From Acholeplasmataceae bacterium (GTDB lineage: Bacteria > Bacillota_I > Bacilli_A > Acholeplasmatales > Acholeplasmataceae): 64,000 bases of DNA. The notes below the pieces were generated by a model. The model was not told where the DNA came from. It worked only from the letters and a program-made list of their open reading frames with translations, and did not search any database. Where the stretch lies: positions 1,344,001-1,408,000 of the forward strand of contig OY775910.1 in the NCBI GenBank assembly GCA_963675245.1. The letters run 5' to 3'. Made by a program: the position numbers and the translations under genes. Below, in pieces: positions 10,208 through 14,148 of the stretch (positions are counted from its first letter, which is position 1; every line of letters starts with the position of its first letter).

Positions 10208-11443
10208 ATGGATATGAATAAAAGAGAAATTGTAGATGGTATATATAGTTTTTCAATGAACATTGACAACATTATATTTGAAAATATGTGGGAACTACCT
10301 CATGGTGTATCGATGAATTCATACATTGTTAAAGGTAATGATGTGGCTATTATTGATGGTGTCATAGGTTGGGATGGTGTGCCTGAAACACTTTACAAAA
10401 ATTTAAAAGATTTTGATATTGAACTTGAAGACATTAAATATCTTGTTGTTAACCACGTTGAGATGGATCACACTGGATGGTTGACTAACTTCAAAAAAAT
10501 GAGTAAAGATTTTACCGTTGTCGCAACCAAAAAAGGAGAAGACATAATCAAATCATTTTATGGCGATGACATGAACATCTTAGTGGTCAAAGATGGAGAC
10601 ACATTAGATCTTGGTCATGGTAAGATATTAGCATTTTATGAAATTCCAAATGTACATTGGCCTGAGACGATGATGACTTATGAAATCAGTTCAAAAGCAT
10701 TATTTCCATGTGATTTATATGGTATTTTTGGGACAGTTAAAGGTCATCTTTATGATGATGAATTAACGGATGATGAAAAGAAGATATATGCTGAAGAAGG
10801 CTTAAGGTATTATACCAATGTTATGATGACCTATACACCAAGAGTTAAAAAGGCGATTGAAAAAACAAGGGCATTAGATATTAAGTTAATTCTTCCTGGT
10901 CATGGTATCTTGTATCGTGGTAATCCAGATCAAATCGTAGATGATTATGAACGATGGGGTGCTTATACAAATGGCCAAGGTGAGAATGAAGTCACGATTA
11001 TTTGGGGGTCAATGTATGGATCAACTGAAAAAATGGTCAATTATACGAAAGGACTACTAGAAAAAGAAGGCATTAAAGTAAAGATGGTCCAAATGCCTTA
11101 TGACACACAAAGTAATGTTTTAACAAAATCACTTAGTTCTGCAGCGATAATAATCGCTGCACCTACCTATGAATATAAAATGTTTCCACCTGTAGCTCAT
11201 GCACTTGATGAACTTGGTAGAAAAAGAATGATTGGAAAGAAGACGCTTTATTTTGGATCAGCTGGATGGATTGGTGGTGCAAAAAAGGATTTTGAATCTA
11301 TTCTTGAGACATCACGTATGAAATGGGATATTGTGGATGCTTTAGAGTTTATTGGTACAGCGGATGAAGATGCTTATCAAATGATCAATCATGCAGTTAA
11401 GAAATTAATTGAATCAATGAAGGAAAATATTTATCAAAGATAA
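10208..11443 (+). CDS. fprA: Flavodiiron protein (FprA/A-type flavoprotein)
   Basis: Metallo-beta-lactamase motifs NHVEMDH, HWPE, PGHG plus flavodoxin SMYGST; start uncertain (10181/10208/10214). Confidence 0.9.
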   Translation: MDMNKREIVDGIYSFSMNIDNIIFENMWELPHGVSMNSYIVKGNDVAIIDGVIGWDGVPETLYKNLKDFDIELEDIKYLVVNHVEMDHTGWLTNFKKMSKDFTVVATKKGEDIIKSFYGDDMNILVVKDGDTLDLGHGKILAFYEIPNVHWPETMMTYEISSKALFPCDLYGIFGTVKGHLYDDELTDDEKKIYAEEGLRYYTNVMMTYTPRVKKAIEKTRALDIKLILPGHGILYRGNPDQIVDDYERWGAYTNGQGENEVTIIWGSMYGSTEKMVNYTKGLLEKEGIKVKMVQMPYDTQSNVLTKSLSSAAIIIAAPTYEYKMFPPVAHALDELGRKRMIGKKTLYFGSAGWIGGAKKDFESILETSRMKWDIVDALEFIGTADEDAYQMINHAVKKLIESMKENIYQR

Positions 11444-11769
11444 TCTATTATTTATTTTTGCAACAACTATTAGAGATGTTAGTCAATAGCTAGCATCTTT
11501 TTTGATAAATAAAGAATTATTAACATTATTCATGCATAAGTGTGTGATTTATTGGGATTTAAAGCAAATTGATAAACGTACAATAGTTGTAGTAGTAAGA
11601 TAAAGACAAAGAAAGAAATTACTAACTTTTATCAATGAGGTGACTAACTATTAAAAGTCAAGTACTTTTAGTAGATAAACTGTAAAAACCTCCAATAGCC
11701 ATAATTTTTAGAGGTTAGCCATATAACTGGATGATTTTATGACTTAACCGCCACAGTTTAAGTAATCAA

Positions 11770-12930
11770 TTATTGTAGTTTAGAGGAATCAAAATCTTCC
11801 TGATGTGTTTCGAGATGATGAATGACTCTAATGAGTTTTTTTGAAAGATGAACCAGTGCGACACGATGATGTTTACCCTCTTGTTTCTTCTTGGTGTAGT
11901 AGTCGTAGAAGACGGGGTTATAGATCATAACCATCATTGAGATATTGATGAGTGTTGCTCTTAGGTACTTGCTGCCACGTTTAACCAGTTTACCTGTTGA
12001 AGACATGGTGCCAGACTGTCTGATGGTTGAATCCAGACCTGCATAGGATAACATTTCAGCGGGATTGGAGAAAAGTGAAATATCACCATATTCTGAAACG
12101 ATGACAGCTGCTGAAATGATTCCGATACCTTTAATGGTTTGAATCTTAGTTGGATATCGATGCATTAAAGAAATGATCTGTTTCTCAGTTTCTTCGATAT
12201 CTTGATTGAGTTTCTCAACATAAGAAATTGAAGTCTTAAGTTTGAATAGTTGATGATCTTGTGTCACACCAATGGTTGATTTTGCGAGTTCCTTCAGTTT
12301 AACAAACTTCGGATAATTGAATTTACCCATCGATCGTTTACGAAGCTTATCGAAGTGGTCATCAGTCATCCTTGCTATTTTATCCGGTGATGAAAAGCGC
12401 TTCAAGATGTATAAAGATGTATCACTATAGCCTTGTTCTTGCATAAAAGGTTTGAATTCAGGAAAGATGACATCTAAGACCTTGGTCATCATATTGTAGT
12501 GTTTCGTCCGAATTGAGATGAGTTTAAAACGTAACCTGGTCAGTGATTTTAAAGCACTTATATGATAAGATTGATGATGATAGGCTTTGTAGTCTACAGA
12601 TCTCATATAAGTTGAAATCATTTGTGCATCTTTCTTATCCGTCTTTGTTTTTCTCAGTGAATGGGCTTCTCCAAACTTCTTCACGAGAAAAGGATTAATC
12701 TCCATGAATGAATATCCATGGAGGATAAGAAATGACTTAAGGTTTTCTCCATAATGACCTGTGGCCTCTAAGCCTATTATCATTTCTTGCTTGACTAAAG
12801 AGTTAAAGTATCCTAATAGTTCTTTAAACCCAGACTGACTGTTCTCAAATGAGAACTGATGGCTAACTGTTTCGGTGGCGATGAAACAGTCATGCTTGTA
12901 CTTTGAAATATCGATGCCGATATAGATCAT
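11770..12930 (-). CDS. IS110 family transposase/recombinase (DEDD)
   Basis: IGIDISK, GLEATGHY, KTDKKDA, IKGIG and YAGLD..RQSG motifs. Confidence 0.97.
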   Translation of the reverse strand: MIYIGIDISKYKHDCFIATETVSHQFSFENSQSGFKELLGYFNSLVKQEMIIGLEATGHYGENLKSFLILHGYSFMEINPFLVKKFGEAHSLRKTKTDKKDAQMISTYMRSVDYKAYHHQSYHISALKSLTRLRFKLISIRTKHYNMMTKVLDVIFPEFKPFMQEQGYSDTSLYILKRFSSPDKIARMTDDHFDKLRKRSMGKFNYPKFVKLKELAKSTIGVTQDHQLFKLKTSISYVEKLNQDIEETEKQIISLMHRYPTKIQTIKGIGIISAAVIVSEYGDISLFSNPAEMLSYAGLDSTIRQSGTMSSTGKLVKRGSKYLRATLINISMMVMIYNPVFYDYYTKKKQEGKHHRVALVHLSKKLIRVIHHLETHQEDFDSSKLQ

Positions 12931-12974
12931 AAGTACACCTCCAAGAATTAAATTTGTACGTGTGGTAAGTCCAG

Positions 12975-13110
12975 CAGCGTCTTTATCTCATAATCATGTA
13001 AAAAGCGTCTTCCGCTAACTAACTATTGCTGATTAAAATAAAGACCGTGGTAAGCGTCACCTCAAAATAGTCTAGGTTATAAAAATATGACACAGATCCA
13101 CAGTACATTA
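12975..13110 (-). ncRNA. Predicted IS110 bridge RNA (core region; true ends unknown)
   Basis: Two stem-internal-loop domains whose loops match the element/target junctions in LTG-RTG-LDG-RDG order. Confidence 0.75.
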
Positions 13111-13195
13111 TTAGTATATTAAATTAGAACGAAAGGAGTAAAGATTTAAAGACTTAAGTAACTAACTTAATACACTTTAAATCTTACATGACTGT

Positions 13196-13525
13196 ATGAA
13201 AAATAAAATCATCATATTATTACTCCTGGTTTCATTTTTTGTTGGTGCTGTTCAATTATTATCTAATCGATCAGTTTCGACTGATGCAAACTCAGGTGCT
13301 ACACAACACGCTATTTCATCAAACATTGATGGCACGACAAGTCCAACAATCATTAATGAAGGTGCATTTTTTGATGGTCTTGCAGGTGTAACGATGATAT
13401 CTGAACTAGATGCCTTAAGTGGTGCATCAACATCTAGAGATGAATATGACGACGATGATGATGAACATGAAGATGAGTATGAACATGAAGATGAACACGA
13501 AGATGAATCGGAGTATGATGACTAA
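13196..13525 (+). CDS. Small exported protein with repeated DxxSGAT-like (flavinylation-type) motifs and His/acidic tail
   Basis: N-terminal hydrophobic segment; DANSGAT, DGTTSPT, DGLAGVT, DALSGAS; EHEDEY repeats; RBS displaced by IS110. Confidence 0.7.
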   Translation: MKNKIIILLLLVSFFVGAVQLLSNRSVSTDANSGATQHAISSNIDGTTSPTIINEGAFFDGLAGVTMISELDALSGASTSRDEYDDDDDEHEDEYEHEDEHEDESEYDD

Positions 13526-14148
13526 TGTTGACTATTTTATTAACAGCATTATTATTTGCAGTTTCCGGATATTTTTTCAGTAAGCAAATTAGAGTAAGTG
13601 CAATCTTTTGGTATATAGTTGCTAGCCTTATAGCGATATTTGTAGATCCTCATTCTGCAAATATATTTAGTCTTGGTTACGTCGCATTTGGTATTTTATT
13701 GTTAGTGATGTTTATGGGTGTATTTGATAAAGGAAAATTTAGAAATCAATTATTAGGAGTTAGAGGAGAATATGCCATCATTGGCACGATTTTATTGTTT
13801 CCACATGCGTGGGGTTATTTTGAATTTTATGGACTTGAAAACAATTTTTTTCAAAACAATCTATCCTTCTATATAGGTATAATTGCTTTAATCACTATGT
13901 TACCTTTAACATTAACCTCATTTAGAATTGTAAAAAGTAAAATGAAATATAAGAAATGGAAGAAATTACATCAACTATCTTATTTATTTTACGCACTGAT
14001 TGCTACACATATAATCTTACTTGACAATCAAAGATTTTGGCTTTATGTCATGATATTTGGAGTTTATACGATTATGAAGGTGATTATGCTACTTCAACCG
14101 AATAAAGCTAAACAACAGCAAAAACACAAAGCTATCCAACACAATTAA
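13525..14148 (+). CDS. Ferric reductase-like (MsrQ-type) transmembrane protein
   Basis: About 6 TMs; LTS...WKKLHQLSY..H heme-ligand pattern. Confidence 0.8.
   Translation: MLTILLTALLFAVSGYFFSKQIRVSAIFWYIVASLIAIFVDPHSANIFSLGYVAFGILLLVMFMGVFDKGKFRNQLLGVRGEYAIIGTILLFPHAWGYFEFYGLENNFFQNNLSFYIGIIALITMLPLTLTSFRIVKSKMKYKKWKKLHQLSYLFYALIATHIILLDNQRFWLYVMIFGVYTIMKVIMLLQPNKAKQQQKHKAIQHN

Follow-up and report, generated by a model that had tools for sequence, protein, structure and literature searches.

A predicted bridge RNA in an IS110-group insertion sequence of an Acholeplasmataceae bacterium and its match to translation-initiation regions

How does an insertion sequence come to lie, in each of its four copies in one genome, between the ribosome-binding site of a gene and its start codon? 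The question is raised by an IS110-group element of an Acholeplasmataceae bacterium (GCA_963675245.1), found in the 64,000-nt stretch of contig OY775910.1 that was analysed here (forward strand 1,344,001–1,408,000; hereafter the window, whose positions are used unless another locus is named). The element lies on the minus strand, and its sequence strings are written 5' to 3' on that strand. IS110-group elements carry a bridge RNA in their left end, and the core is included in all four guide pairings of this RNA (PMC11208160, PMC11208158). In IS621 of Escherichia coli, the left guides have the sense of the DNA top strand and the right guides are antisense (PMC11208160), and the 2 nt after each right guide, the handshake guides, pair with positions 6–7 of the other DNA after exchange (PMC11208158). 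Bridge RNAs were predicted in 85.7% of catalogued IS110s, according to the IS621 bridge-RNA papers (PMC11208160/PMC11208158). A sequence-only reading of the present locus had placed such an RNA in the non-coding end that precedes the recombinase gene, with two internal loops, guides in the order left target, right target, left donor, right donor (LTG, RTG, LDG, RDG) and a GT core at both ends. Our analysis supports the RNA in that place, the two loops, the guide order and the IS621 strand logic, and probably shifts the crossover point by two bases. We favour an ordinary-type IS110 element with an IS621-type bridge RNA and the guide order LTG-RTG-LDG-RDG, and give this explanation, its mechanism included, a probability of roughly 0.6. 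The complementarities between RNA and DNA strings, the covariation of guides with flanks, the structural covariation, the location of all four copies at sites of this kind and the existence of an intact site in a relative were all computed here.

Counting both copies of the proposed CA core (13190–13189 on the left, 11642–11641 on the right), the element spans 11641..13190 on the minus strand, as delimited by its four copies and the end of the sequence that they share. The element proper runs from 13188 to 11643 and measures 1548 bp when one core copy is counted. Its four near-identical copies (99–100% identity) are present in the 1.63-Mb genome, and the sequence common to them (11637–13190) equals the span of the sole assembly unitig shared by the copies in a public run of the organism. 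The boundaries proposed earlier were right to within two bases. The non-coding left end (258 nt, 13188–12931) is longer than the right end (127 nt, 11769–11643), there are no terminal inverted repeats, and the junctions of the four copies show no target duplication beyond the shared CA or TCA. Between the ends lies the recombinase gene (11770..12930, minus strand; 386 aa), with a DEDD RuvC-like domain and a Tnp domain with a catalytic Ser. Its open reading frame (ORF) matched PF01548 (E 3.2e-36) and PF02371 (E 4.7e-22) in Pfam, and scored 230 bits against NF033542, 'IS110 family RNA-guided transposase' (cut-off 140). Residues D7, E55, D98, D101 and S306 (positions counted by hand) align with D11, E60, D102, D105 and S241 of IS621 (8wt6_A), the catalytic residues as named by Hiraizumi et al. 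(PMC11208158). As judged from these matches, ORF 12930..11770 is an IS110-family DEDD/Ser recombinase, and the 1.55-kb repeat may be annotated as an active-looking IS110 element with four near-identical copies.

In each of the four copies, 5 nt separate the element from the ATG of a real ORF. Written in the orientation of the element, their left flanks are TTCATACAGT, TTCATATAGT, GCCATATAAT and TCCATAATAA, directly before CATGTAAGAT, and their right flanks are CACCTC followed by A or T, directly after AATAGTTAGT. CACCTC complements the Shine-Dalgarno sequence GAGGTG, and CAT, read on the other strand, is a start codon. Taken as a whole, the target corresponds to a Shine-Dalgarno sequence, a spacer and an ATG in reverse complement. 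In 4/4 copies the element separates a ribosome-binding site from its start codon, and its recombinase gene runs antisense to the host gene every time. At the window copy, the left target CATACAGT occupies 13191..13198 (minus strand), its CAT being the start codon of the plus-strand ORF 13196–13525, and the right target CCTCA (11636..11640, minus strand) is the reverse complement of the host Shine-Dalgarno sequence GAGG(TGA). The four host genes encode a 109-aa ORF, a 214-aa protein, lpd and glnS; the names lpd, glnS and SGNH-like (for the 214-aa protein) were read from the translations alone. At the lpd copy, the host gene stands directly after the end of the preceding E2 gene. The closest relative (G006) carries the lpd site uninterrupted (...TTGAGGTGAATGAAATGGCAAC), with the same Shine-Dalgarno sequence. 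Because G006 has the site without the element, the Shine-Dalgarno half is host DNA and not part of the element. Empty sites fit all three core placements considered below alike, since each predicts the same uninterrupted sequence. Relatives of the element have CAT 4–7 nt from the element in their left flanks. The genome holds 37 exact CAT-N5-CACCTC sites against 1 for the reversed control, and 4 of the 37 are the element's own recombinase start. This start region (GGAGGTGTACTTATG, 12928–12945, minus strand; likewise in the other three copies) matches the motif exactly, and the element could in principle hit itself.

The predicted bridge RNA (~197 nt, 12979..13175, minus strand) takes its 5' end from the junction promoter described below, and its 3' end was set at the end of the donor-loop stem. 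Its architecture is conserved in 69 distinct sequences. It opens with a 5' stem-loop (13115..13174), in which 13174–13162 pairs with 13127–13115 over 13 bp, both in an RNAalifold structure of 14 close relatives and in the minimum-free-energy structure of the window copy; changes in this stem are one-sided, so that it is conserved and covariation does not prove it. Next comes the target-binding loop (13045..13103), whose closing stem (13103–13098 with 13050–13045) is paired in 99.3% of cells over the 69 sequences, followed by the donor-binding loop (12979..13045), whose closing stem (13045–13035 with 12989–12979) is recovered as a duplex of 7–13 bp in 69/69 sequences. Both stems and the hairpin named in the sequence-only reading are in place on the minus strand: ACTGTGG (13104–13098) with CCACGGT (13050–13044), GTCTTTAT (13045–13038) with ATAAAGAC (12986–12979; RNA GUCUUUAU and AUAAAGAC), and AGCG-GAAGA-CGCT (13016–13004). 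The two loop-closing stems compete for G13045 and T13044 (U in the RNA).

The four strings that had been proposed as guides are likewise present on the minus strand: TCATATTTT (RNA UCAUAUUUU) at 13090–13082, TGAGGTGAC (RNA UGAGGUGAC) at 13064–13056, AATAGTTAGT at 13027–13018 and TTACATGA (RNA UUACAUGA) at 13001–12994, the last three equalling plus-strand 11636–11644, minus-strand 11652–11643 and plus-strand 13184–13191, respectively. By left-flank matching over relatives, the predicted LTG (13080..13092) consists of UGUCAUAUUUU (13092–13082) and an invariant UA (13081–13080) facing the CA core. The RTG (13056..13066), which covaries with the right flank, would comprise UUUGAGG (13066–13060), a core-binding UG (13059–13058) and a handshake AC (13057–13056). 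In the donor loop, the LDG (13016..13027) is AAUAGUUAGU (13027–13018), identical to the right end of the element at 11652–11643, plus UA (13017–13016), and the RDG (12992..13003) is UUUUACA (13003–12997) with core-binding UG (12996–12995) and handshake AU (12994–12993), the reverse complement of the left end at 13191–13184. These exact 10-nt and 8-nt matches of the donor loop to the element ends are conserved in relatives. LDG and LTG run in the sense of the DNA top strand, RTG and RDG antisense to it. The RDG handshake AU fits AT, the commonest last two bases of the left target. Long right-hand guides had also been proposed; their length breaks down into 5–7 nt of guide proper, a 2-nt core-binding part and a 2-nt handshake. 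Each loop is capped by a hairpin between its guides, at 13067..13080 in the target loop (degenerate here, ACAG-loop-CUGU in relatives; compensatory changes in 4/4 pairs) and at 13004..13016 in the donor loop (AGCG-GAAGA-CGCU; 100% of cells paired, compensatory changes in 3/4 pairs).

How far these matches exceed chance was assessed for the window copy by 2000 mononucleotide shuffles of the left-end interior (13165–12931) against 40-nt junction windows. A 10-mer match was reached in 32/2000 shuffles and a 9-mer in 131/2000. The best sense match to the left junction was an 8-nt T-rich string and not the LTG of the sequence-only reading (reached in 796/2000 shuffles), and the best antisense match was an 11-nt arm of the 5' hairpin and not the RDG. 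Folding of the window copy as a single sequence gave z = -1.98. This single-sequence evidence is modestly beyond chance in an AT-rich copy, and becomes clearly non-random only via the four copies and 80 relatives; for that reason the case rests on comparison. One genome per species was scanned for relatives; 206 stretches encode one, and the best 80 of the 206 were kept, giving 84 loci with the four copies from the genome itself. Sixteen of the 80 are close relatives (63–91% amino-acid identity) from Acholeplasmataceae and other Mycoplasmatota, and the remainder (47–52% identity) come from uncultured Bacilli, Izemoplasmatales, Erysipelotrichaceae and others. The left-end architecture is common to all relatives examined. 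We divided them by the start of the left end into group A, to which the window's element belongs (CA followed by TGTAAGAT), group B (CA followed by CGTATAAT) and group C (CT followed by CGTATAAT or TGTATAAT).

The RTG was compared with the right flank (p11–p17 in the junction numbering given below) at the 58 of the 84 loci for which both an RTG strand and 11 nt or more of right flank were available, which yielded 54 unique guide/flank pairs. Guides matched their own flank at 4.91 of 7 positions, compared with 3.15 (standard deviation 0.14) for permuted pairs, and 0/10,000 permutations reached the observed value. Examples are GGGGUGAC with GTCACCCC, GGAGUUGAC with GTCAACTCC and GAAAGGC with GCCTTTC. 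The RTG has been re-programmed repeatedly, each time to a word resembling a Shine-Dalgarno sequence, with a matching change in the flank. Natural variants include GAGGUG, GGAGUU, GGGGUG, GGGAGU, GAAGGU, GGAGAU, GGAGG and GAAAGG. The LTG was tested similarly at 64 loci that offered the strand together with 14 nt or more of left flank, in the register predicted from the alignment, the best of those tried. Matches out of 10 were 5.79 for own pairs against 5.12 for permuted pairs in group A (26/5000 permutations reached the own value), 4.87 against 4.08 in group B (0/5000) and 5.60 against 4.34 in group C (0/5000). The right half of the target appears to be read tightly and the left half loosely.

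RNA structure was tested on a MAFFT alignment of the 69 distinct sequences, with the structure derived from the stems of the sequence-only reading. Pairing was seen in 91.6% of cells, compared with 85.2% after shuffling, and 95 cells had changes on both sides, compared with 24 after shuffling (0/500 shuffles reached the observed number). When the partners were slid by 1–3 columns, pairing fell to 32–59%. It is the two capping hairpins that carry the covariation; the stem of the target loop hardly changes. For the donor-loop stem, 79.5% of cells were paired on this alignment, in which the 3' arm of that stem is misaligned between subfamilies; the duplex search mentioned above finds the stem in every sequence. 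RNAalifold on the 14 close relatives paired the LDG with the RDG, with a covariation term of -0.05; the 69-sequence set was used because the close set is too uniform. The donor loop hardly varies among relatives and the target loop does, as is stated for IS621 orthologues in an extended-data legend of Durrant et al. (PMC11208160).

At which dinucleotide would strands be exchanged? The junction bases were numbered p7–p10, with the p7 G at 13192 and 11644; the right junction is GTCA in groups A and B and GCCT in group C. For the 57 loci with both junctions called, the left base equalled the right base at p7 in 3/57, at p8 in 49/57, at p9 in 56/57 and at p10 in 55/57. Left junctions in the genome itself read GT, GT, AT and AA at p7p8; the G is peculiar to the window copy and a few others. 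A GT core at both ends, as proposed from the sequence, is not borne out by these counts; CA, two bases on, is common to both junctions almost throughout, and the earlier crossover point is probably two bases off. The RTG is complementary to p7–p10 of the right junction in 68/68 loci. Its nucleotides facing p9p10 track that dinucleotide (UG for CA in 46 loci, AG for CT in 22), and the two nucleotides after this core-binding pair track p7p8 of the element independently (AC with GT in 45, GC with GC in 21 and UC with GA in 2 of the 68 loci). In one lineage, L076, GT at p7p8 occurs together with CT at p9p10, and the corresponding RTG has AG-AC. Such independent tracking is the behaviour that would be expected of core-binding and handshake positions. 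Within group C, left ends of the form CT followed by TGTATAAT reproduce the IS621 donor, printed as ACAGTAT.CT.TGTAT in the Methods of 10.64898/2026.08.31.748434, and because they align with CT.TGTAT we place the core at p9p10 (CA in this element). Consistently, three loci (L007, L061 and L069) show CT at the left junction in place of the CA that sister copies of the same element carry there. With the core there, the element ends in the GT seen at the right junction, and this GT pairs with the 2 nt after the RTG, the handshake position of IS621. We consider CA at p9p10 the probable core.

Some details of the guides and junctions weigh against a core at p9p10. The left guides both present UA to the CA, which requires a U-G wobble at the first core base, and in group C the LDG likewise has UA, which mismatches CT at its second base; the LDG of L015 reads ..AGUCA and matches the donor through CA. 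The second core base T is almost invariant among IS621 and related orthologues, with the first less conserved (PMC11208158), and an A as second base is unusual given this preference. The T at p8, shared in 86% of the loci (49/57), means that the common stretch could be TCA or TC.

The version of the sequence-only reading keeps the same bridge-RNA element but exchanges strands at p7p8. Its core would be of an IS621-like 'NT' type, GT in the element and mostly AT in targets, and CA would simply open both right arms as two fixed bases. The LDG (AAUAGUUAGU) and the RTG string end exactly at GT, the common p8 T fits the second-base-T rule of IS621, and the asymmetry between varying left and fixed right junctions could come from top-strand-only integration, as in CazIS110-1 (10.1101/2025.10.25.684509). 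We nevertheless think this placement unlikely, given the rarity of a shared G at p7 and the LTG, which ends in GU in 0/13 close relatives. Moreover, the CT-core subfamily reads GC at p7p8, where the 'T second' rule fails anyway, its LTG continues through p9p10 (e.g. L058, ..CACAUCCU), the alignment with IS621 CT.TGTAT puts the core at p9p10, and L076 has GT beside a CT at p9p10. Equally doubtful is a crossover at p8p9 of the same element, that is TC here and CC in the other subfamily, with an invariant C as second base and a pyrimidine as first. Such a core would agree with C at p9 in 65/66 left and 72/72 right junctions, with a pyrimidine at p8 in 62/66 left junctions, and with RTG and RDG strands that are identical over p8–p10 (UGA here, AGG in the CT-core subfamily). 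It conflicts with p10, which within a subfamily never differs between donor and target although a right-arm position would be free to, and with the CT variants at L007, L061 and L069, which would need independent mutations at one base; the IS621 alignment again favours p9p10. Whichever core is chosen, the string of the predicted circle junction (...AATAGTTAGTCATGTAAGAT...) does not change.

With CA at p9p10 as the preferred core, joining of the ends would also assemble a promoter, recognised here by sequence only. A -35 box TTGACT (11656..11661, minus strand) lies in the right end, 15 nt from the core end, and is conserved in relatives; a -10 box TAAGAT (13181..13186, minus strand) lies in the left end and on the circle would stand 17 nt after the -35 box (spacing counted by hand). 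Groups B and C have the same spacing and a perfect TATAAT, and the candidate promoter is conserved across the three subfamilies. Neither this promoter nor the translation-initiation nature of the target had been noticed in the sequence-only reading. The promoter and terminator scan was uninformative, returning 10 promoter-like sites against 8.2 expected and no terminator, and is blind to a junction promoter that exists on the circle only. As a separate observation, a promoter-like TTTACT-18-TATACT at 13113–13142 (minus strand) ends just before the target-loop stem, in a scan at chance level; groups B and C have TATAAT at its place, and in integrated copies a short RNA might start from it.

The two junctions differ in what they retain. 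The right junction keeps the element's own p7–p10 in 72/72 loci. At the left junction the bases are those of the target; p7 varies there, and p8 is other than T in 26/66 loci. Since symmetric double-strand exchange with mismatches should leave variants on both sides, this one-sided polymorphism is the pattern that would be expected from top-strand-only integration. CazIS110-1, a bridge-RNA-carrying IS110 element from the Firmicute Caloranaerobacter azorensis, is reported to integrate through the top strand >1,300-fold better than through the bottom strand (10.1101/2025.10.25.684509), and integration of this type would explain left junctions that keep target bases and right junctions that keep element bases. 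Unlike its mechanism, which is experimental, ours is read from junction polymorphism, and the two are likened by description. Copy-and-paste transposition has been reported for IS621 (10.64898/2026.08.31.748434).

For transcription, the circle, catalysis and the exact crossover position we infer the following course. The element would excise and its ends join as ...AATAGTTAGT-CA-TGTAAGAT..., which would bring the right-end TTGACT 17 nt upstream of the left-end TAAGAT; the resulting promoter would transcribe the bridge RNA and the recombinase mRNA. The donor-binding loop would hold the joined ends, with LDG AAUAGUUAGU(UA) paired to the bottom strand and RDG UUACA-UG to the top strand, and the target-binding loop would hold the host site CAT-N5-CA-CCTCA. 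This site, the reverse complement of Shine-Dalgarno sequence, spacer and ATG, would be read mostly by the RTG GAGG-UG, with the LTG pairing loosely. Strands would be exchanged at the CA dinucleotide. The 2 nt after the right guides (AC in the target loop, AU in the donor loop) would then pair with the last two bases of the other partner, like the IS621 handshakes; these are GT of the element and usually AT of the target. The outcome would be an element between ribosome-binding site and start codon, its recombinase gene antisense to the host gene. That no RNA guide is involved, the internal strings being extra protein-binding copies of the ends and the recombinase alone recognising ribosome-binding sites, agrees with donor-side strings that are end copies and hardly vary and with the lack of an observed RNA in the assembled contigs of public runs, but is very improbable, as the RTG covaries with DNA outside the element that is present in relatives' uninterrupted sites, the guide strands lie in loops closed by helices with compensatory changes, and the protein family has been shown experimentally to need such an RNA (PMC11208160, PMC11187229).

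Other results speak against the bridge-RNA explanation or soften it. Junctions were called by regular expressions, which left 18/84 left and 12/84 right junctions uncalled. The left junction at one locus (L057, 1–60) abuts a repeat of the element's own sequence upstream of the target loop, which suggests a nested or rearranged copy and weakens the junction calls. For the window copy, the match of the LTG to its own left flank is at chance level, and over all groups its gain over permuted pairs is just 0.7–1.3 in 10, with four registers and two scorings tried per family. An Rfam scan of 11000–14000 with E up to 10 gave no match at threshold and 7 matches to unrelated snoRNA/lncRNA families (E 0.75–7.3). 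No circle junction or joint was found at 85% likeness in the assembled contigs of public runs (X1, X4, X19, X20), from which RNA starts and ends are unreadable, and the bridge RNA stays predicted.

Compared with IS621, the element is alike in its DEDD/Ser recombinase with aligned catalytic residues, in the RNA in the longer left end, in the order of 5' stem-loop, target loop and donor loop, in the four-guide strand logic and in the 2-nt handshake positions after the right guides. Similarly, a -35 box in the right end and a -10 box in the left end would be rebuilt on the circle, and the left end starts (core)TGTA.., compared with CT.TGTAT. Protein similarity is low (E 1.7e-15 over the RuvC-like domain), and the likely core is CA rather than CT, with left guides that read UA at the core. 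The target of IS621 is a REP (repetitive extragenic palindromic) element, whereas this element targets the Shine-Dalgarno/ATG region. Its RTG has 5–7 nt plus the core, compared with 4 nt in the native RTG of IS621 (10.64898/2026.08.31.748434). The T at position 7 is the same in donor and most targets, unlike in IS621, so that the handshake nucleotide can also pair with its own partner; cognate handshake pairing inhibits exchange in IS621 (PMC11208158).

In target type the element agrees with IS900 of Mycobacterium avium subsp. paratuberculosis, whose motif is given as CATGNNNNNNTCTCCTT from a whole-genome analysis (PMC8141618). There, as in 4/4 copies here, a start codon and a Shine-Dalgarno complement stand a few bases apart, and orientation is fixed, with no inverted repeats and no target duplication. 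The IS900 host is actinobacterial and the sequence GC-rich, and the two elements are compared here by target. IS900 also has a long antisense ORF, hed, said to use host signals (PMC8141618), whereas no antisense 'hed'-like ORF longer than 51 aa is present in our element. The seekRNA elements, e.g. ISEc11, have an RNA from the non-coding region with short matches to both target strands (Siddiquee et al. 2024, PMC11187229). Likened by description only, they follow the same principle under another name, with the RNA upstream of the gene in the IS110 type.

Further observations concern the element's right end and its surroundings. The string ACTGTGGCGG at 11748–11757 (minus strand) stands 12 nt after the stop codon and begins with the same 7 nt as the 5' arm of the target-loop stem; close relatives conserve this string, which could be an alternative pairing partner or a protein site. 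At ~11683–11716 (minus strand), AACCTCT...(T)GGAGGTT followed by TTTT resembles a terminator hairpin for the recombinase mRNA; its stem changes in step among relatives (e.g. CACCTCT with AAGAGGTT in L008), and it was missed by the terminator scan. The same locus has a second right-end motif (4145), 1.37 kb downstream of the first. The plus-strand gene behind the window copy (13196–13525) encodes 109 aa with a hydrophobic N-terminus and an acidic Asp/Glu/His-rich tail. The lpd gene, read as the last gene of a pyruvate-dehydrogenase cluster (L003, 1500–3070), and glnS (L004, ~1500) are cut off from their Shine-Dalgarno sequences, and no replacement Shine-Dalgarno sequence is visible in the outward-facing left end of these two copies. 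Finally, a compost metatranscriptome contig (run X19) aligned to window 11742–13191 belongs to a relative with ~90% identity and spans ORF, left end and flank. It exits the element at 13191 into ATATTATGAATATATGG, another CAT-N5 site; the contig may be DNA carry-over and is not taken as transcript evidence.

The principle, the architecture and the handshake are already published (PMC11208160, PMC11208158), and targeting of initiation regions by an IS110-family member is old knowledge for IS900 (PMC8141618). Among the papers searched, none linked the guide of a bridge RNA with Shine-Dalgarno targets; supplements that list orthologues lay outside the search and may catalogue the family. One preprint combines IS110, bRNA and Shine-Dalgarno, but the Shine-Dalgarno sequence there belongs to a riboswitch and not to the target. 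Tentatively, and at somewhat short of even odds when all parts are taken jointly, the relatives may represent a Mycoplasmatota/low-GC Bacillota clade in which a Shine-Dalgarno-mimic RTG homes genome-wide, with re-programmed guides, a CA core and one-strand integration. If this is true, the one-sided polymorphism would be in-vivo evidence for integration through one strand only. The known principle is unchanged by the family. For the host, lpd, glnS and two other genes have their ribosome-binding site split from the start codon by the element. For the bridge-recombinase field, the family offers a natural series of re-programmed RTGs with matched insertion sites, and its natural one-sided junctions bear on the choice between double-strand exchange and top-strand-only integration. 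Its core is likely a non-CT one; if CA is confirmed, a wider set of sites would be addressable by bridge recombinases.

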